NCBI GenBank assembly: GCA_039589195.1 | Contig: JBDHHV010000002.1 | Location: 1,126-65,125, forward strand | Origin: Gemmatimonadota bacterium | Lineage (GTDB): Bacteria; Gemmatimonadota; Gemmatimonadetes; Palauibacterales; Palauibacteraceae | Direction: 5' to 3' | Length of the DNA stretch: 64,000 nt | In this document: piece by piece, positions 2,205 to 57,372 of the stretch | Numbering within the stretch: position 1 is the stretch's first letter | How the letters are laid out: the number at the start of each line of letters is the position of its first letter | The notes under the pieces: model-generated | Database searches by the model: none | Told to the model about the DNA's origin: nothing | The model's input: the letters and a program-made list of their open reading frames with translations, nothing else | Translations under genes and position numbers: made by a program

Positions 2205-2292
2205 CTTGACACGCGAACGGTTCCCGGAGCCGCCCGACCATCCCGGCCAGCGTGTCCGCGCTCGCCCCTTCCTTCCGAAGCGGCGAAGGCTG

Positions 2293-2330
2293 GTTTAAAT
2301 AACCGAAAATGAACCGAAAGTCAAGACTGG
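2293..2330 (-). promoter_or_regulatory. Candidate sigma-70-like promoter upstream of the NUDIX gene
   Basis: Rare AT-rich island. On the minus strand: TTGACT, then a 17-nt spacer, then TATTTA. Also a direct repeat AACCGAAA x2 on the plus strand. Confidence 0.4.
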
Positions 2331-2415
2331 CGCGGGTTTTCGGACGTTTTGGGAGACTGCTGAAGAACCCTGGCGGGTCGCGTTACGGAACGCGACAGCC
2401 CCGGATCCACGGCGC

Positions 2416-31142: not shown

Positions 31143-31165
31143 CGCGGCGGTCCCGGCTTCCCCGC

Positions 31166-35300: not shown

Positions 35301-35809
35301 GCTACCCGCGCGCGGACCGGCTCCCGGGACGGCTGTTGGACCGGCTCGTGGGCCGGCTCCTGGGACGGCTCCTGGGCTCGTCGAGCCTGTTCCGCGGCCT
35401 GTTCTCGTGCAACCACCAGATCGGCGAGCGGCACTTCGTCCCCCGGCGTCCGGCCCTGGCCGTGCAGGGCGATCCAGGCGTCGGTGTAGCCCGCGGCCCG
35501 CATCTGGGTCGCCGCGCGACGGGCGGGACCGATCGATACGAAGTCGCCCACCTGTACCCGGTAGTAGCCAGCACCGTGCATCACGTGGATTGACCAGCGG
35601 TCGCCGACGGCATCGCTGACGGCCTCGAGCTCGAGCGCGGCGGCCGATGCGTCCGCGTGCGCGGCGACCTGGACCCGGTACCTGCGGTCGCCGTTCGCCT
35701 GCCCCGCGGCCGCGCTCGACAGAACCACGAGACCACCGAGCGAGCCAAGCAGAGCCCACACGATTCGCCTCCAGGGCTGGAGCCGGTGTCCTTCACGTGA
35801 TCGACACAT
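32309..35809 (-). CDS. Large secreted protein: N-terminal SPOR domain plus CBM9-like/DUF5916 family domain. Start reassigned to the ATG with GAGGAAAAGG Shine-Dalgarno.
   Basis: Signal peptide WRRIVWALLGSLGGLVVLSSAAAG. SPOR-like RYRVQVAAHADASAAALELEAV...YYRVQVGDFVSIGPARRAATQMRAAGYTDAWI. Pro/Ala/Glu linker. ~850-aa C-terminal region with beta-rich DUF5916-like features and aromatic C-terminus ...LSYWLSLD. Confidence 0.5.
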   Translation of the reverse strand: MCRSREGHRLQPWRRIVWALLGSLGGLVVLSSAAAGQANGDRRYRVQVAAHADASAAALELEAVSDAVGDRWSIHVMHGAGYYRVQVGDFVSIGPARRAATQMRAAGYTDAWIALHGQGRTPGDEVPLADLVVAREQAAEQARRAQEPSQEPAHEPVQQPSREPVRARVAETEVAQAPEADSERAPAAATAVTPATAPIVTPATAPVLQGFHDGGNCKMTYGWVWDSSRPNDAIDVDIYDSGRLVATVTAGNYREGLEDAGKGNGAHSFMYSFPDGGEPGERRLVEVRVAGTDVPLQQTPQWLDCPLPGDGPPAASPLDGEGRKQVRAARVRAGDIEVDGRLDDMVWRRAVFVQDFEQKGPDRGYPPRERTGVAFAFGEDALYVAARMEKKSPETLYAPVGRRDEPGIADRILVSLDTYLDRRTAYTFGVTAGGVRVDHHHPEDREGRTEGSYDPVWEAYTAPDSSGWTAEMRIPFSQLRFNEGDASTWGVNVRRWDPGGYLNAYWVVVPIHETGWASRFGTLVGIPTVQASRRFEVTPYGVATATFLDDEIAAPGEGRDTDTRFGVDLKAGLSSNLTLDATINPDFGQVEADPAEVNLTAFETRFEERRPFFTEGSQLLRGSGPDYFYSRRIGAVPQPNGLGNVVDAPKNGTIAGAAKLTGRLPSGLSVGGLVAVTTPEDVLTVDDLTGEVVPVALAPTTAFGVTRIQKEFGAHGSSAGFVLTGVERDLGSDTGLERRMSRRAYSGGGDWNLRFSEGTYELSGHAGFSTVQGDTSAIRLIQRSSARYFQRPDATHVQVDPTRTSLSGYTGGLRLAKLGGEHWLWDVGFNAESPGFEIKDSGILDSADDLELTGGLRYREAGRSGPFRHYTLGLALGAGWNFEGVRQFTSPSLFASGTWDNFWRTWLRVGFQTRALSDDLTRGGPLMGTASAVDATVGLSSSAAAVNQWSLSARSFFDEFGGWSFSVDGWVAVRPSSNLELALSPGYLRASDSRQFFGEMLGSSDATFGRRYVFSRLDRSEIYAQLSASLGLAPDLTVELHAEPFASSGSFLDFGELAEAGGRELRLYGTDGTTVGPTEDGSLIVTDGDETFTLWNSDFNVRSFRTNAVVRWEWRRGSTLFLIWQQNRWYWDEQGDLVSPGSLFRAVGDVGENILVAKLSYWLSLD

Positions 35810-36515
35810 GTGCCTTTTCCTCGAGTTGGTGGAACGACACGAGCTCGATTCCGGAATCCGACAGCGTCTGTCGCACACCCGGGTCGCAGAGCACCGCGAG
35901 CTCGATCGCACGCTCGGTGGCGTAGGGCGCGCCGGCGTCCGCATCAGCACCGGGATGACACCCCACCTCCGTCACGCCGGGCTCGAGCCCGGTCAGAATC
36001 CGGAGCAGGCGATCGAGGGAGATTCCGTCCGGGAAGGGCTCGCCCTTCCCGGTCTGGCCGTAGAAGTCACCGCAGTATCGAACGGAGCCGAGCCCACGCA
36101 CCGGGACGCCGAGCTCTGCGGCAATCGCGAGCACGGCGGATCTCGCAGGCTCGCCGGAGTGCACGTGCTGGTGGGAGTCGATGTGTGTGGGTTCCAGGCC
36201 CGTCATGCTTCGAAAGGCTCTCAGCTGTCTCTCCAGCTCTTCACCGACTGCCGCCGGGTCCGCGGTCGGCACGACCTCGTAGAGTGCCGACCACCGGCCG
36301 TCGCGATGCACCCACTCTCCCAGATCCAGGTGCAGCCCGAGGCTCAAGTCCGGGAAGCTCCTGGCCGCGTGCACCGCCGCCTCGGCATGCGGGCGGCGGA
36401 CGAGCACGCTCGCGCTCGTCACGACTCCGCGCTCGTGCGCTTTGAGCACGCCCCGGTTGACACCCGGACTGAGCCCGAAATCGTCGGCGTTCACGATCAG
36501 TCGGCGTTCGGTCAC
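35793..36515 (-). CDS. YdjC/ChbG/HpnK family carbohydrate deacetylase. GTG start.
   Basis: IVNADDFGLSPGVNRGVLKAHERGVVTSASVL and HIDSHQHVH motifs of the YdjC family. Confidence 0.75.
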   Translation of the reverse strand: MTERRLIVNADDFGLSPGVNRGVLKAHERGVVTSASVLVRRPHAEAAVHAARSFPDLSLGLHLDLGEWVHRDGRWSALYEVVPTADPAAVGEELERQLRAFRSMTGLEPTHIDSHQHVHSGEPARSAVLAIAAELGVPVRGLGSVRYCGDFYGQTGKGEPFPDGISLDRLLRILTGLEPGVTEVGCHPGADADAGAPYATERAIELAVLCDPGVRQTLSDSGIELVSFHQLEEKAHVSIT

Positions 36516-36711: not shown

Positions 36712-37260
36712 TCAACGCAGGGCTTCGACGAAGAGGCTCTCCGCCTCGCGGTTGTCCAACTCGGTGATCCCGGCATGCCCGCATCGCGTCTCGCGGAAAC
36801 CGCACCGCTGCACAAGAGAGAAACCCGCTTGCAGAAGCAACTCCTCGATGAAGTCGTATGTGAACAGCGTCCTCGAGTGGCCGTACCAGATGAGCTGGAG
36901 TACCATCTTGGCACCGATCGCCTTCGCGTCCTCGTCGGGGATGAGGAAATAGTCGGTGTCACCCGCCTCGTAGGCCTGCATGGCACGCTCGAGATCGGGA
37001 AGCGCGAGACGCAGGATCCCGCCGGGCTTCAGCACCCGGCGGAGCTCGGTGAGCACGGGCACGAGATCCGGGTAGGGGATCTCCTGCAGTGCGTGGATGG
37101 AGACCGCGTAATCGATGTTCGCGTCCGGTAGCGGCAATCCGTCCTTGACGTCGCACGCGTGCTGGATCCCGGGACCCTGCTTCGCGTCCGAGTTGATCCA
37201 GCCCGGCTCACCATGGGCACCGCACCCCCAGTTGAGTCGACGGACCGGCGAGCTCGTCAT
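36712..37260 (-). CDS. Class I SAM-dependent methyltransferase. Start reassigned to the ATG overlapping the upstream stop (ATGA).
   Basis: LNWGCG(A) motif I and LKPGGILRL post-I/II motifs. ~180 aa. Confidence 0.7.
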   Translation of the reverse strand: MTSSPVRRLNWGCGAHGEPGWINSDAKQGPGIQHACDVKDGLPLPDANIDYAVSIHALQEIPYPDLVPVLTELRRVLKPGGILRLALPDLERAMQAYEAGDTDYFLIPDEDAKAIGAKMVLQLIWYGHSRTLFTYDFIEELLLQAGFSLVQRCGFRETRCGHAGITELDNREAESLFVEALR

Positions 37261-38309
37261 CGAGGCCCCATGTCCAGCAGGACAGCGGCGTTCAGGGCGG
37301 TGGTCAACCAGTCCGTGCGGTGCTCGTGCGGAGGGGTCCAATCCGCGCCCCAACCCAGCCACTGGACCGCGACGATCAGCCGACAGGCCTGAAGACTCGA
37401 CTCGAAGGTGGCCCGGTCCGTTCGATACTCGGTCGGCAACGCCTCACGGTACGCAGCCGCGATTCGATCGCGCGCGGGCTCACTCCAATCTCCGGCGGTC
37501 AGGGCCGCCAGGTCGAAGAGCCCGGGGCCGAAGCCGGCGAGCTCCCAATCGACTGGCCGGACGACAGCCGACCCCCGCTTCTCTTCGAGCAAGACGTTCG
37601 AGGGATAGAAGTCACCATGTATGAGGGTCCGGGGGAGCTGGAGGACGAAGTCGACCGCCCGGAGGTAGGGTCCCGCGAGTCGCTCGAGGGCGCGCCGCGT
37701 CCCCTTTTCCGCGCGCGCGCTGGCGAATTGGCAAGCACGAGAGTACCAACCTCGCAGCAACCGCGGCGTATATTCCAGAAGCCGTGCGGCGCGGCAGGCC
37801 ACCTGAAAGCGCGTGATGGCCTGGCCTCTCGCGTGAAAGCCCGCGAGCCAGGCCGCGACTTCCTCCCAGCGCTCGATCGCCTCGAACTGGTATAGCTCAC
37901 GACCACGTATCCGCTCCAGGAGGAGCCATGAGCCGGGGGTCGCCCCGCGCGCACGCACGACCCCATAAAGGAATGGGACGTCCGGCTCCCGGTCCGCGAG
38001 CAGCGCGCGGTAGACCAGCACCTCTCTCATGCCATCGTACACATGAGTGGGCTTGCCATCGGATCGATCGGCGAGCGATCCGCCGACATCGATTCGTTTG
38101 AGCATCAGAGGCAGCGTGGATCCATCGGCTAGCTCGCCTTCCGCCTCGAGCAGGGTGTGGGTCGTGGCGTAGCGCGACCGTCGCCACCGAAGGCCGGCCA
38201 TTCGCGGGCGTCGTCGGTCCCGCCCCAGCGTCTCCGCGATCGCGAGGGCGAAATCCGTGTCGTCCGTGCCCGGGAGTCCGGGGCCGGGTGACGACGTGGC
38301 GGACGTCAA
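37257..38309 (-). CDS. Phosphotransferase (APH/choline-kinase-like protein kinase fold) family protein
   Basis: HGDFYPSNVLL (HGDxxxxN catalytic loop) and VDWELAGFG (D-W-E). ~350 aa. Confidence 0.65.
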   Translation of the reverse strand: MTSATSSPGPGLPGTDDTDFALAIAETLGRDRRRPRMAGLRWRRSRYATTHTLLEAEGELADGSTLPLMLKRIDVGGSLADRSDGKPTHVYDGMREVLVYRALLADREPDVPFLYGVVRARGATPGSWLLLERIRGRELYQFEAIERWEEVAAWLAGFHARGQAITRFQVACRAARLLEYTPRLLRGWYSRACQFASARAEKGTRRALERLAGPYLRAVDFVLQLPRTLIHGDFYPSNVLLEEKRGSAVVRPVDWELAGFGPGLFDLAALTAGDWSEPARDRIAAAYREALPTEYRTDRATFESSLQACRLIVAVQWLGWGADWTPPHEHRTDWLTTALNAAVLLDMGPR

Positions 38310-39460
38310 GCGATCCCCACCCGGCCCAACAGAGCCGTGAGAACGCTGTCCGAATCGAAGTGGCTCCGCGCGAGCGCACGGGCTGCGCGGGAGTGTGGCC
38401 TGTAATCGCGGCGGATGGCTCGAAGTCCCTCCGCCGCTTCATCCAGGGTCGTGAAAGCGCACAACCCGGCACCCGTCGGCAGGTAGCGCGAGAAGCCGGT
38501 CTCCTGCGCGAGGACCGGCCGGCCCGATGCCAGATAGCAGACGCTCCGATCGGAGAACCAGCCGCACGCGGCTTCGACGTATCCGGACTTGGCGACGCCG
38601 AGCTCGGCGAAGGAGTCGACGACGAAGCGGCGGTAGCGGTCGGGAGTACCAGCCGACTGCGTGGGATCCACGAGGACCCAGCCGCCGGCACGCAGCGAGG
38701 CCAGGTCGTCTCGTTCGTCGGGGTGTACGGTGAGCGCCAGCCGAACGCGCTCGTCCGCCAGTCTGGGCAGCTCCATCAGGGGACGGAGCGCGTGCGCCTT
38801 CTGCCCATAAAAAACGCCTTCGTGTCGAATCGAACCGTATGCGCGCCAGTTGGCCACCGTCGTGAACGACGCCTCGGCGGGCTCGCGGTTCGACTCGACG
38901 AGCGGCCAATACGGGAGCACCACGGGGGGTAGCGTCGGGATCCAGCTCCGCCCGCACGTCGGTATCGTGCAATCCGCCTCGGCCAGACCCGGCCCCACCG
39001 TGGCGAAATGCGTGTGACCCTCCAGCCCCAGATCCAGCCCCTCCACGGCGCTCCACAGCTGCGTGAAGCCGGGGTCGAGATCCACGTACAGGCGGGTGGG
39101 GATCGGTCCGGTGATCTCCCGGTCGCGGAGGACGCCGGACAGGTTGACGAGCAGGTCGGCGCGTCCGGCCGCGTCGATCACGCTCTCGTACGGCATGCCC
39201 ATGGCCCTGCGAGCGCCGGGGACGAGCAGCGCGGCCCTTCCGGCGAGACCGAAGCGTCGGCAGACACGGCCGAAATACTCCTCGACCGCCGGCCCGGACA
39301 CGGAGTCATCGAGCGGCTCGACGAGGGTGACCTCCCAGCCAAGCCGCCGGAGCCCCAGGGCGTATTGAAGCACCGCCCAGGTAGCGCCACCCTGCCCCGG
39401 GGTCCCGGCGAAGCGGCCGCTCACGATCGCCGTCCGTCGGCGAGACGAGGCGGGGATCAA
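38306..39460 (-). CDS. Divergent GT-B fold (GT4-like) glycosyltransferase, paralog 1 of 3 tandem copies. TTG start with GGAGAGGG Shine-Dalgarno.
   Basis: N-terminal Rossmann half with G-rich loop (GTPGQGGATWAVLQYALGLRRLGWEV). C-terminal half GWFSDRSVCYLASGRPVLAQETGF resembling the GT4 EAMA-G-PV donor-binding region. Paralogous to 39457..40635 and 40643..41884. Confidence 0.5.
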   Translation of the reverse strand: MIPASSRRRTAIVSGRFAGTPGQGGATWAVLQYALGLRRLGWEVTLVEPLDDSVSGPAVEEYFGRVCRRFGLAGRAALLVPGARRAMGMPYESVIDAAGRADLLVNLSGVLRDREITGPIPTRLYVDLDPGFTQLWSAVEGLDLGLEGHTHFATVGPGLAEADCTIPTCGRSWIPTLPPVVLPYWPLVESNREPAEASFTTVANWRAYGSIRHEGVFYGQKAHALRPLMELPRLADERVRLALTVHPDERDDLASLRAGGWVLVDPTQSAGTPDRYRRFVVDSFAELGVAKSGYVEAACGWFSDRSVCYLASGRPVLAQETGFSRYLPTGAGLCAFTTLDEAAEGLRAIRRDYRPHSRAARALARSHFDSDSVLTALLGRVGIA

Positions 39461-40635
39461 GCCGCCCTCTCCACGGGTCCGACGCGATCGAGAAACTCGC
39501 CCAGCACTCGGCTCGAGTCCAGATAGTGCTCGGCGAGCGCCCGGGCGGCGCTCGAATGCTCATCGTAGTCCCGCCGGATCCGGGCAGCGCCCGCGACGGC
39601 GTCCTCGAGGGTCCGGAACGTGAGCAGGCCGGCGTCGGTGGGCAGGTCCGAGAACCCGGTGTCCTCCACCAGCGCGGGTCTACCGGAGGCCAGATAATGG
39701 GCCGTCCGGTCGCTGAACCACCCGCTTAGCGTCTCGACGTAGATCTCCTGGGCGGCGGAGAACTCCGCATCGGATGCTTGGATGTAGCTCCGGTACGTGG
39801 CCGGATCCGGCACCACATCCCGCGGATCCACCAGCGACCATCCGTGCGTCCGCAGGGCATGCAGATCGACCGAGTCGCCGGGGTCGATCTGGAGGGCGAT
39901 CTCGAACCGCCCCTCGGCTCGTCTGGGGACGTCCAGGTACTCGCGAAACCGGTGCGCTTTCAGGCCCAGTCGACGGCCATCCCGGTGGAGAGAACCGAAC
40001 GCGCCACGCCAGCTCGCGACGGTTGTGAATCGGGGCTCCCGGCCAGCGTATCCGGCGCCCTCGGACGAGGGCCATTCCTCCATGAGCACCGGCGGCCGGA
40101 ATGGCTGCCACGCGAGACCACCGTCGGGTATCGCGCACCCCGCGAGCCCCACGTTGGCGCCCACGGTGAAGAAGGCCGTGTGGTCCCCGAGGCGTCCTCC
40201 GAGACCCTCGTCGTGCCAGAACTGGGTGAAGCCGGGGTCCAAATCGATGTACGCGCGGCGCGGCACGCGAGTCATGAACGGTTCGAGCGTCAGGTGGCCG
40301 CTCATGTTGACGAGCAGGTCGGCGTCGCCCGCCAGGTCGGCCAACTCCCCCGGTCCGAGCCCCGAGACCGGCTGCCCGTCTCGGGTCACGAGCGCTGACC
40401 GCTCCCCCAGTCCGAACTCACGCATCACGGCGTCGAAGTGGGCGCGGTGACCGCTGTCGCTCGGCGCGCACCGCTCGCCCAAACCGTCGGTGCATAGGCC
40501 CGGATCGATCTGCTCGAGGAAGTACACTTCCAAGCCGAGGCGCGCGAGACCGACCGCCCAGGTCATGCGAACCCACGCTTCGCCCGCGTTTCCGAGCTTG
40601 TTCGCCACCGCGCCCGCCACGATCGCGATCGTCAT
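39457..40635 (-). CDS. Divergent GT-B fold glycosyltransferase, paralog 2. Start reassigned to ATG at 40635; the track ORF extension overlaps the upstream gene.
   Basis: MTIAIVAGAVANKLGNAGEAWVRMTWAVGLARLGLEV...GWFSDRTAHYLASGRPALVEDTGF. Same architecture as its neighbours. Confidence 0.5.
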   Translation of the reverse strand: MTIAIVAGAVANKLGNAGEAWVRMTWAVGLARLGLEVYFLEQIDPGLCTDGLGERCAPSDSGHRAHFDAVMREFGLGERSALVTRDGQPVSGLGPGELADLAGDADLLVNMSGHLTLEPFMTRVPRRAYIDLDPGFTQFWHDEGLGGRLGDHTAFFTVGANVGLAGCAIPDGGLAWQPFRPPVLMEEWPSSEGAGYAGREPRFTTVASWRGAFGSLHRDGRRLGLKAHRFREYLDVPRRAEGRFEIALQIDPGDSVDLHALRTHGWSLVDPRDVVPDPATYRSYIQASDAEFSAAQEIYVETLSGWFSDRTAHYLASGRPALVEDTGFSDLPTDAGLLTFRTLEDAVAGAARIRRDYDEHSSAARALAEHYLDSSRVLGEFLDRVGPVERAA

Positions 40636-40642
40636 ACGCGAC

Positions 40643-41884
40643 TCACCCTGGTCCGACCGTGATGGGGGGTTGGGACGTCGGTCCTTGAGGATCGATCGGG
40701 CCCTGCGGAAGCGAAGCCGCCATTTCGTCCAGCAATCGTGCGAGCACGCGGTCGCTGTCGAGGTAGGCCTCGGCCAGCTCGCGGGCGGCACGCGCGTGGC
40801 GCTCCCAGTCGGCGTCGATCTGCGCGACGCCCACCACCGCACCTTCGAGGTCCGCGAACGAGAGCAGTCCCTCACCGCTCGGAAGAGCCGCTTCGAAGCC
40901 CGTGTCCGATGCGAGCACGGGTCGCCCACTGGCCAGATAGCAGGCCGACCGGTCGCTGATCCAGCCGCTTCGGGTCTCCGTGTAGAGCGCCTTCGCGACC
41001 ATCAACTCGGCACGCGAGCCGGCGATGAAGCCCCGATAGGCGTCGGGCCCGCCCGCGACGGTCAGCGGGTCCTGGATGGTCCACGCCGATTCGCTCAGGC
41101 GAGCGAGATCCGCTCGTTCGTTCGGGTGGATGTCCAGCGCGACGCGGAACTGCTGGCCTGTCCTCGAGGGGAGAGAGAGGAGCTCGCGGAATGCGTGCGC
41201 GCGCAGACCGTACGTATGGCCTTCGAACTCCAGCGAGCCGCTGTCGCCGCGCCATGTCGCGACCGTGGTGAAGCCGTCGCCCGGGTCCACGACCCGGGGC
41301 CACTCCTCGAGCACCACCGGGGGTAGCGTCGGAATCCACTCAACTCCGCACGCTGGGATCGTGCAGCCGGCGGACCCGATGCCCGTGCCGACGGTGACGA
41401 AGGCATCGTGCCCGGTGAACAGGTCCACGAGCCCCAGTTGGTGCCACATCTGGCCGAACCCGGGATCCAGGTCGACGAACACTCTGCGCTCGGGAGCGGA
41501 AAGGACCTCCTCGTCCGTCCAGTAGCCCATGAAGTTCAGGAGGAAGACCGAGCTCAGCGCATGGTCGATGACCGAGTCGCGCGACCGACCCAGATAACCC
41601 TCACCCTCGCACAGAAGGGCCCATGCGTCCGTCAAGCCGAAACGGTCCATGCAACGAGCGAAGTAGGCCAACTGGACCGAGTAGCGCGGCGCGCACGGGT
41701 GACCGGCGGCGTCCGTGCACATGTCCCGCTCCAGCCGGTCCAGAAACAGTACGTCCCAGCCAAGCCTCCGCAGCCCCAGCAGGTACTGGAGAAAGACCCA
41801 CACATGGCCGGCGCGGCGGTACCGCTGCGCGACGCCGCCTGCGACGATGATGCGTCCCCTGCTCCGAGCGACGCGGCTGCTCAT
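40643..41884 (-). CDS. Divergent GT-B fold glycosyltransferase, paralog 3
   Basis: RIIVAGGVAQRYRRAGHVWVFLQYLLGLRRLGWDV...GWISDRSACYLASGRPVLASDTGF. Confidence 0.5.
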   Translation of the reverse strand: MSSRVARSRGRIIVAGGVAQRYRRAGHVWVFLQYLLGLRRLGWDVLFLDRLERDMCTDAAGHPCAPRYSVQLAYFARCMDRFGLTDAWALLCEGEGYLGRSRDSVIDHALSSVFLLNFMGYWTDEEVLSAPERRVFVDLDPGFGQMWHQLGLVDLFTGHDAFVTVGTGIGSAGCTIPACGVEWIPTLPPVVLEEWPRVVDPGDGFTTVATWRGDSGSLEFEGHTYGLRAHAFRELLSLPSRTGQQFRVALDIHPNERADLARLSESAWTIQDPLTVAGGPDAYRGFIAGSRAELMVAKALYTETRSGWISDRSACYLASGRPVLASDTGFEAALPSGEGLLSFADLEGAVVGVAQIDADWERHARAARELAEAYLDSDRVLARLLDEMAASLPQGPIDPQGPTSQPPITVGPG

Positions 41885-48887: not shown

Positions 48888-51427
48888 CGACGCCCCTCGC
48901 GGTTGGCATGACTCTCCGGCCGGGGACCGGCCTCCATCAGTGGACCGGTCAGACGGTACAGCACACCGGTCCCGGGCTCCTCGGCCACGACGCACGCGTG
49001 GCGACGGAGCCGCTCGGCCAGCTCTTCGTAGTGCGACAGCCACCAGAGGGACGTGGCCGGGAGCAGCAGATAGCCCGCGCCCCCGCGCCGAAGCTCTTCG
49101 AGGTGCGTAATCGCGTCCCACGCCGTAGCCGGGTGGTGGCCGGCGTACCCGCCGCCGGGGGCCTGCGGGAAGTGGGCGGCACGGTGGCTCTGGAGCTCCA
49201 CGAGCGCCTCATCGCCGCGGCTCGCCACCAGCACCATCTCCCGCTCTGGCACGTGCCGGCTCACGAGATCCAGCGCATGCGCCCGCTGCCGCTCGTAGTC
49301 GGGGTTCGATCGTCGGCCGTAAGGCGGCGGCGGCTCACCCCATTTCCGCTCGAAGCGGGCCCGGTTCTCGCGCAGCAACGCGTCGTACTCGCCTTCTCCG
49401 ACAAGCGCCCCGAACGATCCCTTGTCGAAGTGGTGCATGAACACGTCTTCGGCGGACACGAGTCGGAGACCTGCTCCCCGGATCCGGTGGCAATAGTCGT
49501 CGTCCTCGAGGGTGCCGAGTCCAAAGCGCTCATCCAGGGCCCCGATCCGCTCCCAGGTCGAGCGGCGCAGCGCGAAGCAGAACATCGTGAGAGACGGGAT
49601 GTCCCGCGGTTCCCCCGCGTGCCGCTCCCGGCGTTCCCGGGCGAACCGCATCAAGTCGCCGTATGTGTCGTACGAGGCGTCGATCTGCGCCTCGTTGCAG
49701 ATCCGGTTCGTGACCGGCCCCACCGCTCCGACCGACGGATCGGACAGGTGCCGCAGCAGGTCGCCCAGCCACCAGCGTGGAGGGATCGTGTCGTTGTTGA
49801 GCAGGACCAGGGCGGGGGCGCGAGACATCTCCATCCCGAGGTTACACGCGGCCGCGAACCCGAGGTTGCTGTCGGACAGCCGGACCCGGACCCTCGGGTG
49901 CGAGCGGGCGAGATCGCGCAGGTATGCCGGCGTGTCATCCGTGGACGCGTTGTCGAGGACGATGAGCTCGTAGTCCCCGATTTCCGTGTTCGCGAGCAGG
50001 CTCTCCAGACAGAGTCGGGTCAGGAGGAGCCCGTTGTGCGTGACGACGATCACGCTCGCCCGTGGCTTGACCGATGGCTCGTCCCCGGGTGGAAGCAGCG
50101 CACCCGACGACCCTGGCCACGGGCGGTCGAGCACGAGCCGGGCGCTCTCCTCCGAGAGCCGAACGGGATTCCGTGACACCGGCTCGAGCACCAGCTCGCG
50201 GGGGAATGCGTCGACGTTCTTCAGCACGGGGCGCACGCGCGGGTGGGCGGTAGCGGCTCCAATCTGGTCCAGCATGTGTCCGAGCACTCGACCCGCGTCG
50301 AAGTACTCGTTCGCGATGTCCTCGGCGGCTCGCGCGTGCCCGTCGTAGTCAGAGCGTATCGCCTCGAGCGCCGCCCTCGCTTCGTCGAGCGTGTCGAACG
50401 CGAACAGACCGAGGCCCGTGGGGAGAGTCTGACCGAGACCCGTATTTTGGGTGATGACGGGGCAGGCGGCAGCCAGGTACGTGGCGCTGCGGTCGCTGAA
50501 CCAGCCGCTTCTGAGCCTTACGTTCTGGTCCTTCGCGACCGTGAACTCCGCCCGTGAACCCTGAATGTAGGCGCGGTACGCGTCGAGATCCGCGGAGAGC
50601 GGCCCTGCATCGCGAACCGCCCAGCCCACCGCTTCGAGGAGGTCTCGGTCCTCTCGCTCGACACCCGAGAGCGCAAGCTCGAACGAATCCGGGGCAGCCG
50701 ACGGCAACTCGCGTACCTTCTCGAATTGCTCGTGCTTGCTCCAGCGATACAGCTCGCCGCGGAACCGGATGTCGCGCCATTGCCGCCAGCTGGCGATCGT
50801 CGTGATGAGCTCGCGCTCACTCCTCGCTTCCGGCTCTGTGCGCCACAGGTCGAGCACCACCGGTTGCCGGGTGGGCCGGAAGCGGAATGCGGACGAGTCG
50901 GGCACCCCACAGTCCCCGTTCCCGAGGTTCTCCCCGAAGCTGAAGTGGGCGAAGTGGCTCGCGAGGAATCGCGCCGTGCTCTCGAAGCGGTGGAAGAGCT
51001 CGAGCTGCGGGAGCACCGGGTCCGTCTCCACATAGACGAGGCGATCCCGGTCGTGTCCGGGCCGCGGTGTCGTGCCACCGTGCAGGTTCAGGATCAGCGA
51101 GGCCCGGTCGTAAAGCCGGGCCAGCTCTTCCGGCGTCATCCCGAGGCAGTCACCGTCCGCGTGTAGCGCCTCGTACGCCCACCGATCCCCAAAGCCGAAG
51201 CGGCTCAAGTGACGGTCCAGGTATGCGGCGGCCCCACGCACGCCGAAAGGATCGCCCGGCTTCACGAATGCGGAGGGTGTGCGGGCGTGCGCCTCGACGT
51301 AGTACACGTCGTACCCCAACCGGCGCAGACCGATGAGGTAGTGCAGCGTCTGCCACACCACCCCGGCGACCGGCATCGGTGTCATCATCCCCAGGACGAC
51401 GGCGCGTGGGCGCCCGAGCAGTCTCAT
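48884..51427 (-). CDS. Three-part fusion: divergent GT-B domain (4th paralog) + GT2 domain + conserved C-terminal DUF domain
   Basis: N-terminus AGVVWQTLHYLIGLRRLGYDV...GWFSDRSATYLAAACPVI. Middle SVIVVTHNGLL...DNASTDDT...GTLEDDDYC. C-terminus SRGD...HFPQAPGGGYAGHHPATAWDAITHLEELRRGGAGYLLLPATSLWWLSHYEEL. Confidence 0.7.
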   Translation of the reverse strand: MRLLGRPRAVVLGMMTPMPVAGVVWQTLHYLIGLRRLGYDVYYVEAHARTPSAFVKPGDPFGVRGAAAYLDRHLSRFGFGDRWAYEALHADGDCLGMTPEELARLYDRASLILNLHGGTTPRPGHDRDRLVYVETDPVLPQLELFHRFESTARFLASHFAHFSFGENLGNGDCGVPDSSAFRFRPTRQPVVLDLWRTEPEARSERELITTIASWRQWRDIRFRGELYRWSKHEQFEKVRELPSAAPDSFELALSGVEREDRDLLEAVGWAVRDAGPLSADLDAYRAYIQGSRAEFTVAKDQNVRLRSGWFSDRSATYLAAACPVITQNTGLGQTLPTGLGLFAFDTLDEARAALEAIRSDYDGHARAAEDIANEYFDAGRVLGHMLDQIGAATAHPRVRPVLKNVDAFPRELVLEPVSRNPVRLSEESARLVLDRPWPGSSGALLPPGDEPSVKPRASVIVVTHNGLLLTRLCLESLLANTEIGDYELIVLDNASTDDTPAYLRDLARSHPRVRVRLSDSNLGFAAACNLGMEMSRAPALVLLNNDTIPPRWWLGDLLRHLSDPSVGAVGPVTNRICNEAQIDASYDTYGDLMRFARERRERHAGEPRDIPSLTMFCFALRRSTWERIGALDERFGLGTLEDDDYCHRIRGAGLRLVSAEDVFMHHFDKGSFGALVGEGEYDALLRENRARFERKWGEPPPPYGRRSNPDYERQRAHALDLVSRHVPEREMVLVASRGDEALVELQSHRAAHFPQAPGGGYAGHHPATAWDAITHLEELRRGGAGYLLLPATSLWWLSHYEELAERLRRHACVVAEEPGTGVLYRLTGPLMEAGPRPESHANREGRR

Positions 51428-53295
51428 CGGGCACTTCCGACGCTGCGGACGAGCTCCGGCCCCGCCTCGGACTCGGGCTCCTGGCCCGCCGACGCCTCCG
51501 GCCCCGGATCATGCTGCGGTGCCGATCGGGCATGACCGGCCTGTACGTCGTGCAGCTCCCGGAAGAGACCGTCACGCGCGAGCAATTCCTCGTGGCTCCC
51601 CTGCTCGACGATTCGGCCGCCGTCCATCACCAGGATCCTGTCCGCGTTCCGGATCGTGGACAGGCGGTGCGCTATCATGAACGTCGTGCGCCCGAGCATG
51701 AGCCGTTCGAGCGCGTCCAGGATCACGCCCTCGGTACGCGAGTCGATCGAGGAGGTCGGCTCGTCGAGGATCAGGATCGGGGCGTCGCGCAGGAACGCTC
51801 GCGCGACCGAGATGCGCTGGCGCTCGCCGCCCGACATCTGGACTCCTCGCTCACCGAGCGCGGTATCGTACCCCTTCGGAAGCCGCTCGATGAACCCGTG
51901 CGCGTTGGCGGCCCTGGCGGCCTCGACCACTTCGTCCATGGATGCGGACAGGCGCCCGTAGAGGATGTTGGAGGCGATCGTCCCGGAGAAGAGGAGGGGC
52001 TCCTGGAGCACGATGCTGACCTGGTCTCGCAGCGAGGCCAGCGTGATCTGACGGATGTCAGTCCCGTCCAGGAGGATGTGCCCCTCACCGGGCTCGTAGA
52101 ACCGTGGGATGAGGCTCACGAGCGTGGTCTTGCCCGCGCCCGTGGGCCCGACGACGCCGAGCTTCTGGCCGGGCTCGGCGGTGAACGAGATCCCCTCGAG
52201 CGTCCGGTCGCGGCCGTCGTAGCTGAAGCCGACATCTTCGAACACGACCTCGCCACGAGCGCGCGGGATCACCAGGGCCCCGGGCAGATCACGGATCTTC
52301 GGCTCCTGATCCAACACCTTGTACGCGATCTCGAGGCTGATGAACCGATCCTGGAACGACCCGATCGTGTTCGCGATCGCTTCGAGCGGGCCGTAGATGG
52401 AGGCGATGTAGGCGAGCACGACCAGAAGCTCGCCACCCGTGAGCCGTCCCTCGGTGATCTGCCACACGCCGAACCCCAGCACGACGGCCGCCCCCGCCGC
52501 CGTGGTCGTGTTCACGATCAGCGAGAACAGCGTCTGGCGGACGGTGACCTTCACGCGCTCATCGATGGCACGCTTGCCCTGCTGGCGAAAACGGCGGAAC
52601 TCGTGGCTCTCGCGCCCGAAAGCCACGATGACCCGCATCATCGAGATCGCCTCGTGTACGATCGAGAGCGACTCGCCCTCGAGTCCCTTCACCTTCCGGA
52701 GTCGCTCCTGGATGTGGGTCATGTAATAGCCCACGGACCAGTACAGGAACGGCACCACGACCAGCGAAAGGAGGGCGAGCTGGTGGTGGATCATCCAGGT
52801 CAACCAGAACATCCCGATCAGCGTGAGGGCGCTCTGCGCGAGGGGCAGCACGGCCATCACCAGACCGGCGGCCGCATCCGCCTGGAAGTTGATCGCGTAG
52901 ATCAATCCTCCCGCGCGACGCTTGTCGTGGTAGGCCATCTCGAGCCGCTGCGCGTGCTGGAACAGGTCGCTACGGAAGTTCAGCACCATCCCCTGCTCGA
53001 GGCGCGTCTGCACGTAGCTGTTCAGGACCGAGAAGCCGTTCTGGGCCAGGGTGAGCCCGAACCCGCCCAGGACCACGGCGCCGATGAGGAGGAGCTTCTG
53101 CTCCATCAGGGGCTGGAGCACCGGTGCCACGATGCCGGGTGGCGGGTGCGAGCCCAGCACGCTGTCGAACAGGATCTTGAGCGGCCACGGCTCCAGCAGC
53201 GCGAGCAGTGACACGCCGATCGTGAGGACGCCTGTCACGACCGCCGAGCGCCAGAACGGCTTCAGATATCGCAGCACGCGGAGGAAGTACTTCAC
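51424..53295 (-). CDS. ABC transporter permease/ATP-binding protein (MsbA-like type I exporter). GTG start.
   Basis: 6-TM domain. Walker A GPTGAGKTT. Signature LSGGERQRISVARA. Walker B ILILDEPTSSID. Confidence 0.9.
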   Translation of the reverse strand: MKYFLRVLRYLKPFWRSAVVTGVLTIGVSLLALLEPWPLKILFDSVLGSHPPPGIVAPVLQPLMEQKLLLIGAVVLGGFGLTLAQNGFSVLNSYVQTRLEQGMVLNFRSDLFQHAQRLEMAYHDKRRAGGLIYAINFQADAAAGLVMAVLPLAQSALTLIGMFWLTWMIHHQLALLSLVVVPFLYWSVGYYMTHIQERLRKVKGLEGESLSIVHEAISMMRVIVAFGRESHEFRRFRQQGKRAIDERVKVTVRQTLFSLIVNTTTAAGAAVVLGFGVWQITEGRLTGGELLVVLAYIASIYGPLEAIANTIGSFQDRFISLEIAYKVLDQEPKIRDLPGALVIPRARGEVVFEDVGFSYDGRDRTLEGISFTAEPGQKLGVVGPTGAGKTTLVSLIPRFYEPGEGHILLDGTDIRQITLASLRDQVSIVLQEPLLFSGTIASNILYGRLSASMDEVVEAARAANAHGFIERLPKGYDTALGERGVQMSGGERQRISVARAFLRDAPILILDEPTSSIDSRTEGVILDALERLMLGRTTFMIAHRLSTIRNADRILVMDGGRIVEQGSHEELLARDGLFRELHDVQAGHARSAPQHDPGPEASAGQEPESEAGPELVRSVGSAR

Positions 53296-56009
53296 CCGAC
53301 TGCCTCTCGGGGGTCGGTCTTGGGCGAGGGGTCCGAGTCCGCATGCCCCGGTCGGTCGGTCTCCGGGCCATCGTGCCTCGGTCCCGAGTCACGTGCGACC
53401 GCGGGTGTCGTGGCCATCCGCCCGTTGGACTCGTACCGCGGCCGGCCTGAGACCGTGGCGCCGCCGGTGGTCCGGACGTCGGCATCGTGCATCGCGTCGA
53501 GCGCTTCGAGGACGGCGGTCATCGCGCCGCCACACTCGAGAACGATCCGTACGGCGAACAGTACGAACGCGAGAGCGAGCAGGACCCCGGCAAACACCGC
53601 ACCCGCCGCGAGCGCCCACCCGGTGAGAGCCGCGAGGAGACCGAGCGACCCCGAGCCGGGACGCGACAACGTCGGTAGCAGTCGCACACGCACGAACTGC
53701 TGACCGGCCCCATGCTCCTCGGTGCACGTGCGAATCCTGACGCGTCCGGATGGACCACCCTTGACCAGGAGATCCCAGTTATCGAAGGGGCCACCCCGCA
53801 GTACCGCGGCGCGCATCCGTCGGAGTACGAACTCGAGACGCGCGAGTCGCTCGGGAGGGGGTGACCACCCGTCGCTCCACAGGAAGACGGTCTGCGGTTC
53901 GGGCAGTACGAAGCGCCTCCGGGTTCGCAGTCGCCACGGCGTCAGACCATGGCGCAATCGCCCCCGCAGGCGGGCGGCGGGCTGCAGGAGATGTAACGCG
54001 ACCGTCAGGAGCGGCCTGACGAACCGGTCGCGGGGACTCGATCCTCTCGAGTCGTCGCGCGCGTGCGCCGCGCCCGCGATCGCCTGCGGAAGCACCGCGC
54101 CCGCCGCCAGGACGAGAAGTGGCAGCGTCCATAGCAGGGGTCGCCACGCGAGCCCGAGCGCGCTGAGCCCGGCGAGCGCCAGGATCACGAGGTACCATTC
54201 CGGCGTCGAGACGAGGGAGCTCAGGAAGCCGGGCGACGGAGGGTGGTACGCCTGGAAGGGGGCTTCGCCCCAGATTCCGTGATAGATCCGCCCACGACGA
54301 CCCAGACCGAACAGCCGTGGCGCCCCGTACACACGCCCGCCCCACGTCACGTGCCCGGCCGAGTTGTACTTCTCCGGCCACTTCTCCTCGAGCAAGGCCT
54401 CCGCGCGCCCGTACCCGGACTGCTGCCGCCAGTATGTCCGGACGGAGTCACGCGCGTGGTGCCATACCATCGCGGCCGGACTGAAGCCGAGCGTGTGTCC
54501 GCTCTCCTGTAGCCGCCAGCAGATGTCCACGTCATCGCCCGCTACGCGGAAGCGTGGGTCAAAGCCATCCACCTCGTCGAGCGCGCTCTTCCGGAAGGCC
54601 ATATTGCAGCCGGGGATGTGCTCCGCCACCTGATCGGACAGCAACACGTGGATCGGGCCGCCGGGGGCATTCGCCACGCAGCCGGCCACGAAACCGTCCC
54701 CGGGAGGCGCCACGTTGGGCCCGCCGGCGCCCGCGAATGTTTCGTCGGCGAGCGTCATGGACAGATACGTGAGCCAATCGGAGTCCGGTCGCGCATCGGC
54801 GTCGGTGAACGCGACGATCTCGCCCGTCGCCGCTTCGATGCCCGCATTGCGGGCTTTGCTCAGCCCCTGGTTGGCCGTCCGGATCAGCTGGACGGGGAAT
54901 TCGGCGGCGATGTCGGGCGTCGAGTCCGTCGAGCCATCGTCGACCACGATCACCTCGTAGTCCGGATACTGGATCGCGGTCGCTCCCTCGAGGCAATCGC
55001 GCAGCGTGCCCGCGGCGTTGAACGCGCAGATGACGATGGAGATGCGAGGGCGTTTCTCCCCCTCGATCTCGGGTGTCGCGGCAAAGGCCCGTCGCACGCT
55101 GCGGAGAGCGGGCTTGGGCTTCCGGCACTCGTCGGTCACCCCGAATCCCCACGCCTCGACATCGTGCCCGCCCGTGTGCCACTCGTCGGTCCATGAGAAC
55201 ACGAACGTCCCCGCGCACCCTCCCCGGCGCGCGGCCCGGATCTGGGCATCCAGCCCGCAGGCCTGCCCGAACTCGCCGTGCGAGCGGCTGTCGAGCCCGA
55301 GCTCTCCCATGAGGAGTGGACGGTCGCCCGCGAGGTTGTGAAGGCGCGCGAGGTAAGCCGAGAGACGCTCCGCCGATTCCAGATAGACGTTGAAGCACAG
55401 GAGATCGAGGAAGTCGAGGTGGAGATACTCCGTGGATGGGTAGTTCACGTACGTGACGAGCCCGTCGGGGTCCTCGGCCTTGGCCAGGTCGTATAGCGAT
55501 CGGATGTGCCGCTCGATGCGCTCGCGACCGCTCCAGCGGACGATCTGCGCGGGTGTCTCGTTTCCCACTGCGTAGCACAGGACGGCGGGGTGCCCTGCGC
55601 ACGCCCGCACGGCCCGGCGCACTCGCCCCTCGATCCGGGCGACGCGGCCCGGCTCGTCGAGGAAGGCCACGTGTTGCTCCCAGGGGATCCCGACCATGAT
55701 GCGGAGTCCCTGCCGTGCGGCTGCGTCGAGCGTCCAGCGTGGGGGCGGCGTGTACGTGCGGACGGCGTTCGCCCCCGCCTCGGCCATGTGGGCGAAGTCA
55801 CGCTCGACCATCTCTCGCGGTGGAAACGGCTCCCCGTCACGGTTGCGGCGGAACGTCCCATAGGTGAAGCCGCGGACGAAGAGCTTCTCGTCCCCCGCGT
55901 ACAGGAACTTGCCGGCCGCGCGCGGTCGCGGAGCCGCCTCGGCCGGTGCCTCCCTGCCGGTCGGGACGGGTCCGCCCGCGCGGCCGTTGATGGTTGGTCC
56001 GGGGTGCAT
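53292..56009 (-). CDS. Fusion protein: clan GH-A glycoside hydrolase-like TIM-barrel domain + GT2 glycosyltransferase + C-terminal multi-TM region. First gene of the operon.
   Basis: N-terminal FVRGFTYGT...AVGNETP (NEP acid/base-like). Middle ISIVICAFNAAGTL...VIVVDDGSTDST...DADA...GFDPRF...CWRL GT2 motifs. Hydrophobic helices after residue ~600. Confidence 0.68.
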   Translation of the reverse strand: MHPGPTINGRAGGPVPTGREAPAEAAPRPRAAGKFLYAGDEKLFVRGFTYGTFRRNRDGEPFPPREMVERDFAHMAEAGANAVRTYTPPPRWTLDAAARQGLRIMVGIPWEQHVAFLDEPGRVARIEGRVRRAVRACAGHPAVLCYAVGNETPAQIVRWSGRERIERHIRSLYDLAKAEDPDGLVTYVNYPSTEYLHLDFLDLLCFNVYLESAERLSAYLARLHNLAGDRPLLMGELGLDSRSHGEFGQACGLDAQIRAARRGGCAGTFVFSWTDEWHTGGHDVEAWGFGVTDECRKPKPALRSVRRAFAATPEIEGEKRPRISIVICAFNAAGTLRDCLEGATAIQYPDYEVIVVDDGSTDSTPDIAAEFPVQLIRTANQGLSKARNAGIEAATGEIVAFTDADARPDSDWLTYLSMTLADETFAGAGGPNVAPPGDGFVAGCVANAPGGPIHVLLSDQVAEHIPGCNMAFRKSALDEVDGFDPRFRVAGDDVDICWRLQESGHTLGFSPAAMVWHHARDSVRTYWRQQSGYGRAEALLEEKWPEKYNSAGHVTWGGRVYGAPRLFGLGRRGRIYHGIWGEAPFQAYHPPSPGFLSSLVSTPEWYLVILALAGLSALGLAWRPLLWTLPLLVLAAGAVLPQAIAGAAHARDDSRGSSPRDRFVRPLLTVALHLLQPAARLRGRLRHGLTPWRLRTRRRFVLPEPQTVFLWSDGWSPPPERLARLEFVLRRMRAAVLRGGPFDNWDLLVKGGPSGRVRIRTCTEEHGAGQQFVRVRLLPTLSRPGSGSLGLLAALTGWALAAGAVFAGVLLALAFVLFAVRIVLECGGAMTAVLEALDAMHDADVRTTGGATVSGRPRYESNGRMATTPAVARDSGPRHDGPETDRPGHADSDPSPKTDPREAVG

Positions 56010-56370
56010 GCGCGCCGAACAGCCTCCCGTAAACGGCGGACGAAACTGCGGTTACATCGCGAGCTGTGGGGGGTGTTGAGCAGCACGTATGCCAGCCGCG
56101 GTATCGAGCCCCGACCAGGCGCGGAGCTGCGGTCCCGGATCCGCTCGGCCACTGGATTCGGGGCGGGCGGGGCGTGAATCAGGAGCGCCGGAAGTCAGAT
56201 CCGGTTAGGGTCTTAGGGACGATTCGGGCTCCGGCGGCGTCCCCTTCGGCACGTGGCCACGGGAAGGTGTTCGGCCACCGTGGCGCAGTCGGACGCGTCG
56301 CGGCGTGCGACGCGTCCGTGGAGGGTGGGTGCGTCACGGTTTGGCTCGGGTGTGAAAAAAGTGGCGCCTG

Positions 56371-57135
56371 CTAGTTCCCTTCCAGCTGTGAGAGCAATCG
56401 CGTGGCCTGTGGGTTCTCGGGATCGATCTCGAGCGCCTTCCGGACGGCGGCGAGCGCCGCGTCCTTGTCGCCCTCCTGTGTGTTCAACTGCGCGAGTAGC
56501 AACAAGCTGTTCACGGACTCCGGGTAGTGCTCGAGGTTGAGCTCCACGAGCGCTTTGGCCTCGCCGGTCTTCTGCGCCTGGGCCAGACCTCCCGCCACCA
56601 GCATGAGCGCGAACTCGCTGAAGTCGTAGGACGCGCTGCCGTAGAACTCCTCCCGCAACTCGCGATACTTGGCCACTGCGGCGTCGATCCCCTCCGCATC
56701 GATCGTTTGGACGATGACGTCGCCGATCGACCGGGGAAGCGCCTTGCCGTTGTGGCAGGTCGCGCACGTGACCTTGACGGCGGGCTCGGCGCGCTCGGCG
56801 ACTTCGGTCAGCCCGGGCAGCCGCTCCTCGTTCAGGTAGTCGACCATCTGGAGCATGAAGCGCGCTTTGCGCTTGGTCTCCTTGTCATCGGATTCGAAGT
56901 CGTACTCGGAGAACGGCCGGCCTTCCTCTCCGACGTGGCAGTGCGTGCACCGGACCCCGAGCCCGATCGCGAAGCCTCGCATCACCCCGATCAACTCGCG
57001 CTGCGGGATGTCCTCCGGGAGCACCTGGAGATTGTTGAACTCGTCGGGTATCTGGGCCGCCGCGGGGCTCGGGAGGGCCAGACCCGCCCCCAGCACCACC
57101 CCCAGGGCCACAATTCGTCGCAACATTGGCATCAT
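56371..57135 (-). CDS. Diheme c-type cytochrome with C-terminal TPR-like domain, periplasmic
   Basis: Signal peptide. Two CxxCH motifs (CTHCH, CATCH). TPR-like helical C-terminus. GGAGAG Shine-Dalgarno. Confidence 0.7.
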   Translation of the reverse strand: MMPMLRRIVALGVVLGAGLALPSPAAAQIPDEFNNLQVLPEDIPQRELIGVMRGFAIGLGVRCTHCHVGEEGRPFSEYDFESDDKETKRKARFMLQMVDYLNEERLPGLTEVAERAEPAVKVTCATCHNGKALPRSIGDVIVQTIDAEGIDAAVAKYRELREEFYGSASYDFSEFALMLVAGGLAQAQKTGEAKALVELNLEHYPESVNSLLLLAQLNTQEGDKDAALAAVRKALEIDPENPQATRLLSQLEGN

Positions 57136-57372
57136 CGCTCTCCGTGTCTCATGACGGTCAGCCGAAGTGGCCGACCTCCATCAAATCCATACCAGGGCAT
57201 ACCGGTTTCATCGGGTACTCCAAACCGGCACTCTCGATGGGTGGCGATGTCGTCGCTACCCCGTTGCGCCGAAGCGGACGGCGGGAACGACGAGGCGGGA
57301 GTCCGCGGGGCCAGAACGGGGGTCCGACCGACGGCGATCCCACGCCGTGTCGGCAGCTTTCGGGGGAGCGGC

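Follow-up and report, generated by a model that had tools for sequence, protein, structure and literature searches.

A conserved glycoside hydrolase-glycosyltransferase fusion protein from a Gemmatimonadota bacterium: a candidate cytoplasmic glycan synthase and processing enzyme linked to an ABC exporter

The window analyzed here is a 64,000-nucleotide stretch of a Gemmatimonadota genome (assembly GCA_039589195.1, contig JBDHHV010000002.1, positions 1,126 to 65,125), and the gene of interest is a single open reading frame (ORF) at 53292..56009 on the minus strand. From its ATG start it encodes a protein of 905 amino acids, in which a clan GH-A glycoside hydrolase (GH) barrel is followed by a family 2 glycosyltransferase (GT2) domain and a C-terminal module with four transmembrane (TM) helices and a soluble domain. 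An earlier reading, made from the sequence alone, had described a fusion of three such elements (GH-A-like barrel, GT2 domain and C-terminal hydrophobic helices), and all three were found, with the strand corrected to minus. The motifs quoted in that sequence-only reading were located at residues 149-153 (GNETP), 355-364 (VVDDGSTDST), 402-406 (TDADA) and 495-500 (DICWRL). A full-length AlphaFold2 (AF2) model, with an alignment of 28 sequences as input, gave a predicted local distance difference test score (pLDDT) of 78.6 and a predicted template modeling score (pTM) of 0.74. Public metagenome data hold an identical protein, named solely "GT2 family glycosyltransferase".

The family to which this protein belongs is broad. 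More than 8000 clusters at 90% identity were scored in the homologue search, and all 120 matches listed, at 56-100% identity, contain both the GH2_C barrel and the GT2 domain. The homologues come from more than 15 phyla and have 50-65% identity, with about 50-60% between phyla. When one genome per species was scanned, a GH-GT2 locus turned up in at least 593 species, among them members of Acidobacteriota, Gemmatimonadota, Chloroflexota, Actinomycetota, Nitrospirota and several proteobacterial classes, along with Bacteroidota (Nibrella, Mucilaginibacter), Chlorobium, Planctomycetota, Verrucomicrobiota and others. Since the same architecture recurs in thousands of homologues across so many phyla, chance or read-through is excluded, and sequence conservation indicates that strong selection acts on a genuine ORF, on the fusion and on the C-terminal region. 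Invariance of individual residues was counted over 186 family members from more than 15 phyla; N150, E151, E236, D358, D403, D405, D492, D493, Q530 and Y533 were each present in 186 of 186, and the genomic codons were verified for N150-E151 and for the GT2 motif residues. Some family representatives carry additional domains: P0146 and P0162 have an NHL-repeat beta-propeller C-terminal to the membrane module, and P0131 has an extra GT2 domain at its N-terminus. No published account of a GH-GT2-membrane architecture, nor any characterized member, was found in the literature searched. A paper on Sphingomonas promonan, also consulted, proved unrelated.

The N-terminal domain is a predicted (beta/alpha)8 barrel of clan GH-A, which spans residues 28-312 (55074..55928, minus strand) as judged from Pfam GH2_C, a PDB profile search, Foldseek, the GH72 model and hydropathy. 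The Pfam Glyco_hydro_2_C triosephosphate isomerase (TIM) barrel model matches residues 57-241 (E 8.8e-10, 38.6 bits against a cutoff of 21), and AF2 builds the TIM-barrel fold over residues 30-310 with a pLDDT mostly of 85-97. Foldseek matched the barrel to GH157, GH2 and GH158 structures at E 1e-15 to 1e-12; LaGH157 ranked first (E 1e-15), with GH2 uronidases and GH158 next at about 1e-13. The nearest solved relatives in a plain sequence search were GH158 (E 8e-10) and LaGH157. When the PDB was searched with a family profile, LaGH157 was at the top (E 3.8e-14, positions 8-256 of 285), followed by GH158 (E 3.2e-10) and GH2 glucuronidases (about 1e-9). A motif after strand 8, (T/A)D(E/G)Wx(R/K)GG, is common to this protein (TDEWHTGG) and LaGH157 (ADGWWKGG). 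The Pfam model of the GH72 glucanosyltransferases matched 10 of 14 homologous N-terminal domains and scored above its gathering cutoff in P0131 and P0138.

The catalytic residues expected of clan GH-A (an Asn-Glu acid/base behind strand 4, a Glu nucleophile behind strand 7) are in place. The putative acid/base, N150-E151 of the GNE motif (55557..55562, minus strand), matches the NE of GH158 and LaGH157 in the alignment. The putative nucleophile, E236 of the motif MGELGLD (55302..55304, minus strand), aligns with E224 of LaGH157, the Glu whose replacement (E224A) served to trap laminaritriose in PDB 9g4n. N207, E211, T274, D275 and W277 are also invariant or nearly so; W273 is found in 185 of the 186 members (one Tyr), and position 209 is Tyr in 172 and Phe in 14. 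The segment described earlier as GH-A-like is thus a true barrel with its catalytic Glu pair intact, and the objection that it might lack that pair or belong to a non-hydrolase family fails. The GH family assignment that had been called for was reached in part: the similarity to the GH157 and GH158 beta-1,3-glucanases extends across the barrel with the catalytic residues aligned, but identity is only 18-23% and GH2 is near-equal. Membership in GH2 itself was rejected, as the sugar-binding jelly-roll and Ig-like domains that come ahead of a GH2 barrel are missing, the barrel begins at residue ~30 and Pfam finds the GH2_C barrel model only; the GH2 targets in the PDB align to the barrel from target residue ~260-350. 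If the model set out below holds, the N-terminal domain is a candidate for a new GH family that works in biosynthesis.

The GT2 catalytic domain, of the GT-A type, covers residues 321-551 (54357..55049, minus strand), based on Pfam PF00535, NCBIfam and invariance. Within this interval lie the motifs DDGS (357-360), DAD (403-405), GDDVD (491-495) and a QQSGY helix (529-533). Pfam PF00535 (Glycos_transf_2) matches residues 324-480 with an E value of 1.1e-31 (110.5 bits against a cutoff of 23.3), and Glyco_trans_2_3 matches residues 398-636. The DxD and the catalytic Asp residues (D358, D403, D405, D492 and D493) are intact and invariant, in agreement with the earlier description of a canonical GT2. 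The best named NCBIfam match was MftF (TIGR03965; 160.6 bits against a cutoff of 280, E 5.9e-47), and other close named relatives were EpsD and PgaC (E 3.8e-26). An identity as MftF was rejected, given the score below cutoff and the lack of any mft-type family among the neighboring genes scanned. The family carries an invariant QQxGY (529-533) where synthase-type GT2s carry Q(Q/R)xRW, the positions having been equated by reading the alignment. The protein therefore has an aromatic residue and not the Arg-Trp of the processive synthases BcsA, PgaC, HAS, NodC and CrdS.

Hydropathy, taken as a 19-residue average along the chain, places all hydrophobic helices after residue ~600, as four TM helices in two hairpins. 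The first hairpin comprises residues 603-648 (54066..54203, minus strand; AF2 helices 605-618 and 623-648), and the Glyco_trans_2_3 match reaches into it, to residue 636. It is followed by a conserved, predicted-cytoplasmic C-domain at residues 659-781 (53667..54035, minus strand), recognized by conservation across phyla and in a model of the module. The second hairpin and a C-terminal helix occupy residues 783-845 (53475..53663, minus strand), as supported by hydropathy, AF2 and the separate module model. Residues 850-905 (53295..53462, minus strand) form a disordered tail with a pLDDT below 50 that is unaligned among homologues. The C-terminal hydrophobic helices described earlier are therefore these two hairpins, and the suspicion that this end might be low-complexity read-through is refuted by its conservation across phyla with invariant residues. 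The C-domain consists of a long amphipathic helix and then a small alpha/beta domain, in which R680, E764, H766 and Q771 are invariant. The separate structural model of the module had a pLDDT of 87. When searched against the PDB with Foldseek, the module gave nothing below E 0.001 and only weak KA1- and START-like similarities, and a word-indexed search with the C-terminal 196 amino acids returned only short fragments from the same family.

No signal peptide was found, and hydropathy over residues 1-590 revealed no TM segment, either ahead of the GH domain or between it and the GT2 domain; the average never exceeded 1.26 there, and the family-average maximum was 0.93 compared to 1.8-2.7 in the hairpins. 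The inter-hairpin loop (645-705) carries 14 Lys or Arg residues, consistent with the positive-inside rule, and the outer loops of the hairpins have about 5 residues. GT2 enzymes draw on cytoplasmic nucleotide sugars. Because of this requirement, and because there is neither a signal peptide nor an intervening TM helix, the GH barrel is placed in the cytoplasm. The N-terminus of type IV ABC (ATP-binding cassette) exporters is cytoplasmic, and the C-terminus of the enzyme is placed there as well since two homologues, P0063 and P0172, run directly into the N-terminus of an ABC transporter. All soluble parts of the GH-GT2 protein are thus predicted to face the cytoplasm. The topology prediction called for in the sequence-only reading thus gives four TM helices, all C-terminal by hydropathy and AF2, and places the GH and GT2 domains on the same side. 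Tat (twin-arginine translocation) export of the barrel was considered and rejected, as the conserved RPR before the barrel has no hydrophobic h-region after it and the GT2 domain lies downstream in the same chain. The four helices do not form a BcsA-like channel: channel-type synthases have TM helices on both sides of the glycosyltransferase (GT) domain, and here all four are C-terminal. Pfam gave no PilZ match in the 905-residue protein. In L083 (2040-7918), a related contig from metagenome data, the C-terminal module is called as a separate 261-amino-acid gene directly upstream of an ABC exporter, which is probably a broken copy of the GH-GT2 gene. The same contig encodes a 375-amino-acid PilZ-domain protein at 2040-3167, and the ~2 kb from there to the module gene hold only small ORFs on the opposite strand; this nearby PilZ protein hints at control by cyclic di-GMP.

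Downstream of the enzyme gene is a 623-amino-acid half-transporter of the ABCB type (type IV, MsbA/Sav1866-like; 51424..53295, minus strand), identified by Pfam ABC_membrane and ABC_tran. The TGA stop of the GH-GT2 gene overlaps the GTG start of the transporter gene as GTGA, an arrangement of translational coupling. As in type IV exporters, a full-length ABC_membrane transmembrane domain is fused to an ABC_tran nucleotide-binding domain. The best NCBIfam model was MsbA (453.8 bits against an equivalog cutoff of 602), PglK was also matched, and Sav1866 was matched in the PDB over residues 6-585 (E 1e-98). Synteny was assessed in the 61 related loci for which 3.5 kb or more of downstream sequence was available; the exporter was found downstream on the same strand in 48 and was directly adjacent in 46. 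Two independent fusions of the enzyme and transporter genes were also found, in P0063 (Chloroflexia, 1467 amino acids) and P0172 (1421 amino acids). In P0063, the C-terminal helix is followed by a ~15-residue linker and then by the elbow and first TM helix of an ABC_membrane and ABC_tran transporter. Taken together, the conserved synteny, the translational coupling and the fusions seen in other lineages make a strong sequence-based case that the enzyme is functionally tied to the adjacent exporter, and the link with an ABC exporter suggested earlier is borne out. Three Acidobacteriota loci with no adjacent ABC gene (L003 13568-14530, L009 14547-15530 and L055 12741-13730) have a protein of ~320-330 amino acids without a Pfam match just downstream, and L035 has a 330-amino-acid ORF of similar size in the same position.

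Other genes in the window recur with the enzyme to varying degrees. Three tandem GT-B-like paralogues of ~390 amino acids (ORFs of ~384-490 amino acids) lie at 38306..41884 on the minus strand (40643-41884, 39457-40929 and 38306-39460), as found by tblastn synteny and a weak Pfam Glyco_trans_1_2 match. A fourth copy (50150-51427, minus strand) is the N-terminal half of an 847-amino-acid GT2 protein at 48884-51427. By tblastn synteny, this GT-B-like family is the second most conserved partner (47/61 loci); it gave nothing significant in the PDB profile search and no NCBIfam match. A carbohydrate deacetylase of the YdjC family (35793..36515, minus strand; Pfam YdjC E 6e-49, with the NCBIfam ChbG and HpnK models below cutoff) is a recurrent but not universal partner, present in 14 of 82 loci. 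An APH-family kinase is encoded at 37257..38309 on the minus strand (Pfam APH), and related loci repeatedly contain APH-like clusters. Genes for NAD-epimerase, hexapeptide acyltransferase and UDP-glucose dehydrogenase are shared by subsets of loci, and the window's other GT2 and GT4 genes, sulfotransferase and methyltransferase are lineage-specific. Among the recurrent neighbor families that were annotated, which are part of the whole, there was no initiating phosphoglycosyltransferase and no Wzx, Wzy or Wza.

The APH-family kinase adjoins an S-adenosylmethionine-dependent methyltransferase (36712-38309, minus strand), and the sulfotransferase is a few genes away (41894-43234, minus strand). 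WbdD, the chain terminator of ABC-transporter-dependent O-antigen synthesis, has a kinase and a methyltransferase, and the pair in this cluster recalls it by analogy. The enzyme might instead be an anomeric sugar kinase that partners the nucleotidyltransferase at 30186-31295. At the distal end of the same-strand run, beside the YdjC gene, is a 1213-amino-acid protein with SPOR (peptidoglycan-binding) and DUF5916 domains (32309-35950, minus strand), a possible envelope component of the system. Directly upstream of the enzyme gene and co-directional with it (56371-59354, minus strand) are genes for a histidine kinase of the LytS type, for a LytTR response regulator and for a protein with reaction-centre cytochrome c-like and tetratricopeptide repeat parts; a LytTR/His_kinase pair is also near the homologous cluster in L074, a Mucilaginibacter metagenome-assembled genome.

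The gap upstream of the GH-GT2 gene is 361 bp. It contains a sigma-54-like -24/-12 element, TGGCATACGTGCTGCT (56079..56094, minus strand), about 70 nt upstream of the ATG, and this is the sole match to TGGCAY-N5-YTGCW in the 64-kb window, where 0.02 were expected. A match of this type is not conserved: among 77 loci scanned, only one (L048) had it besides the window's own contig (L001). No sigma-70 promoter or intrinsic terminator was found in a scan of 51000-57400. The earlier proposal that the gene leads an operon is plausible in view of the gap, the sigma-54-like element and the GTGA overlap, but it gains no help from other loci, where the element is not conserved.

We propose that the protein is a membrane-anchored bifunctional enzyme, a synthase joined to a retaining glycosidase or transglycosylase, that feeds a processed beta-glycan to the ABCB-type exporter, and we give this reading a probability of about 0.5. 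The domain identities, the conservation of the catalytic residues, the predicted topology, and the exporter synteny and fusions are observations. From these we infer that both activities operate on one glycan, in the order given here, and that a soluble oligo- or polysaccharide results. In the first step, the inverting, nucleotide-sugar-dependent GT2 domain with its QQxGY variant would assemble a beta-linked glycan on the inner side of the membrane. In the second, the GH157/GH158/GH72-like retaining barrel would cleave, release or transglycosylate the chain before export, which could cyclize the chain or set its length. In the third, the four TM helices and the C-domain would anchor the enzyme and dock the dedicated exporter, which would move the product across the cytoplasmic membrane; the docking is probably a function of the C-terminal module. 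The GT-B-like protein and, variably, the YdjC deacetylase and the APH-like kinase may add to or decorate the product. Both domains probably act on the same chain because an inverting GT2 makes beta-linkages out of alpha-linked nucleotide sugars and a retaining GH-A enzyme acts on such linkages. The sequence-only reading had called the protein a polymerase/trimmer. Such a role is possible, but release, cyclization or transglycosylation in the cytoplasm is at least as likely, and since the barrel sits before export, release, length-setting or cyclization/transglycosylation is likelier than trimming after export. Our leading guess for the backbone is a beta-1,3-glucan type because the GH157, GH158 and GH72 relatives all act on beta-1,3-glucan; the guess is a tentative one since GH2 uronidases score nearly as well.

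Several points weigh against the synthase-exporter model. An adjacent exporter is lacking in 13 of the 61 loci; two deltaproteobacteria, one of them Desulforhabdus, have the gene on its own, with 2-oxoglutarate dehydrogenase genes as neighbors. The transporter itself is of the generic ABCB/MsbA-like kind and not specifically near Cgt/ChvA, and such transporters also flip lipid-linked substrates. GH2 beta-glucuronidases and galacturonidases score almost level with GH157 and GH158, which leaves the specificity of the barrel ambiguous. The additional GT2 and GT4 genes, sulfotransferase and methyltransferase of the cluster suit a heteropolysaccharide better than a simple glucan. In addition, the topology is a prediction, and the enzymatic activities are putative.

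Another possible explanation, and the main rival, is a lipid-linked pathway, to which we assign roughly a one-in-five chance's worth of belief. Here the GT2 domain would act on polyprenyl-phosphate, an undecaprenyl-diphosphate-linked glycan or a glycolipid, the GH-like domain would edit or release the lipid-linked glycan, and the ABCB partner would be a flippase in the style of PglK or MsbA, both of which are among its matches, with MsbA scoring best. The arrangement of a GT-A domain, interface helices and two TM hairpins resembles DPMS, GtrB, ArnC and PcManGT, with weak PDB matches (5mlz, 9hwj, 6yv7), and Pfam Glyco_transf_21, which covers glycolipid synthases, scored above its cutoff at 31.7 bits. 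However, the GT2 domain is far nearer to enzymes that form oligosaccharides, namely MftF (E 5.9e-47), EpsD and PgaC (E 3.8e-26), than to transferases acting on polyprenyl-phosphate (E 1e-4 to 1e-5). The YdjC partner is similar to HpnK, a deacetylase of lipid-linked N-acetylglucosamine, yet no initiating phosphoglycosyltransferase was seen among the recurrent neighbor families, as far as these were annotated. The fold hints for the C-domain, KA1 and START, are lipid-binding but below significance. Such a pathway would also leave the invariant active site of a retaining glycosidase without a role.

It is improbable that the barrel is non-hydrolytic in vivo and serves the GT2 domain by binding glycan, as a scaffold or by holding a primer. 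A cytoplasmic hydrolase beside a synthase does look futile, and there is a precedent of sorts in PgaB, whose C-terminal domain was long seen only as binding poly-N-acetylglucosamine and as required for export before its hydrolase activity was found (PMC5933820). On the other hand, the catalytic Glu pair, the NE motif, Y209 (or Phe) and W273 are essentially invariant in 186 sequences from more than 15 phyla, a pattern one would look for in an active retaining enzyme or transglycosylase and not in a binding module. A self-contained BcsA-like secretion machine, in which the fused hydrolase trims the translocated chain as do BcsZ, PelA or the periplasmic GH17 of NdvB, is the least probable reading of all, for although the GH and GT2 domains share one polypeptide with intact catalytic residues, Glyco_trans_2_3 and PgaC/NodC-type similarity are present and NdvB has the same GH-then-GT2 order from N to C, the protein has no signal peptide, no TM helix before or between these domains, no more than four TM helices, which all lie C-terminally and have outer loops of ~5 residues, QQxGY instead of QxxRW and no Pfam PilZ match, and a conserved, sometimes fused ABC exporter would be redundant for an enzyme that forms its own channel.

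The synthase-exporter model, if it holds, would describe a distinct route for an envelope or extracellular glycan, in which polymerization and processing take place in the cytoplasm on one polypeptide that is physically coupled to an ABCB exporter. The family is widespread and unusually conserved in dominant but poorly studied soil phyla, where it is annotated just as "glycosyltransferase". The conserved catalytic residues and the natural fusions make the model directly testable, and the compact two-gene system could be used to study how soluble glycans are handed over to type IV ABC exporters. More speculatively, the family, its exporter and the GT-B-like partner may form an unrecognized pathway across phyla, in which a GT2 domain and a GH157-like transglycosylase, both on the cytoplasmic face, make a beta-glucan-type product of defined length or cyclic form and hand it directly to the exporter by way of the 4-TM/C-domain docking module; we regard this extended version as possible but doubtful. 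If true, the pathway would be common in soil Acidobacteriota, Gemmatimonadota, Chloroflexota and Actinomycetota and would be a third independent invention of the principle of a cyclic or oligo-glucan synthase plus an ABC exporter.

Compared with known systems, the protein has the features of clan GH-A and of GT2 and misses the defining features of GH2, BcsA-type synthases, NdvB, Cgs and MftF. GH157 (LaGH157, PDB 9fz9 and 9g4n) and GH158 are the best match of the N-terminal domain in sequence and structure, with the NE motif and the nucleophile Glu aligned. GH157 and GH158 enzymes are secreted or surface-located, act on external laminarin and have extra C-terminal sequence (chains of 537 and 424 amino acids), whereas the barrel here precedes a GT2 domain, has no signal peptide or TM helix before residue 600 and is predicted to be cytoplasmic. 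MftF, which adds a short beta-1,4-glucan chain, is the best-scoring named GT2 family, yet the match spans only 67-314 of 467 model positions and leaves the GH barrel outside. The BcsA/BcsZ, PgaC/PgaB and Pel (PelF/PelA) systems likewise pair a GT with a dedicated glycoside hydrolase. Their hydrolases are separate and periplasmic, and export is through a synthase channel or porins and not an ABC transporter. The echo of BcsA with BcsZ or of PelA that the sequence-only reading had heard is not upheld, as those hydrolases act in the periplasm on the exported chain and the barrel here is predicted to be cytoplasmic.

NdvB, which makes cyclic beta-1,3-glucan in pseudomonads and Bradyrhizobium, is the closest system in composition, with an N-terminal clan GH-A barrel and then a GT2 domain. 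It is a GH17-GT2 fusion in which a signal peptide precedes the periplasmic GH17 domain and a BcsA-like TM region lies between the domains; its GH17 belongs to a family that acts on beta-1,3-glucan, and the logic proposed for it is to polymerize and then cut or cyclize (PMC10237404). NdvB has Q(Q/R)xRW and multiple TM helices between its domains, in contrast to QQxGY, C-terminal TM helices and an ABC partner here, and the 905-residue protein gave no Pfam GH17 match and had no N-terminal or inter-domain hydrophobic segment.

The closest system in logic is Cgs, the cyclic beta-1,2-glucan synthase, with its exporter (Cgt/ChvA/NdvA) from Agrobacterium and Brucella. It is likewise membrane-anchored with its GT and glycan-processing domains in the cytoplasm, its few TM helices lie outside the export path, and a separate type IV ABC half-transporter exports the product. 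The two are non-homologous: Cgs combines GT84, a GH94 phosphorylase and a cyclase, compared with GT2 and a GH157-like GH-A barrel here, and no GT84, cyclase or GH94 match was found for the 905-residue protein in Pfam or NCBIfam. Cgs is ~2800 amino acids long, and the GH-GT2 enzyme, at ~900, is far below that size; the ABC partner here is also not specifically Cgt-like. All soluble catalytic domains of Cgs are cytoplasmic, there are six TM helices, and the ABC transporter Cgt exports the product with a preference for a particular size (PMC10901819). The term "non-canonical export route" used in the earlier reading is thus fair when set against the Wzx/Wzy and synthase pathways, but the route has a precedent in Cgs and Cgt (PMC10901819). 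A glycan synthase with a processing GH domain that is served by an ABC exporter is a known principle, and it is met here in a very large uncharacterized family.

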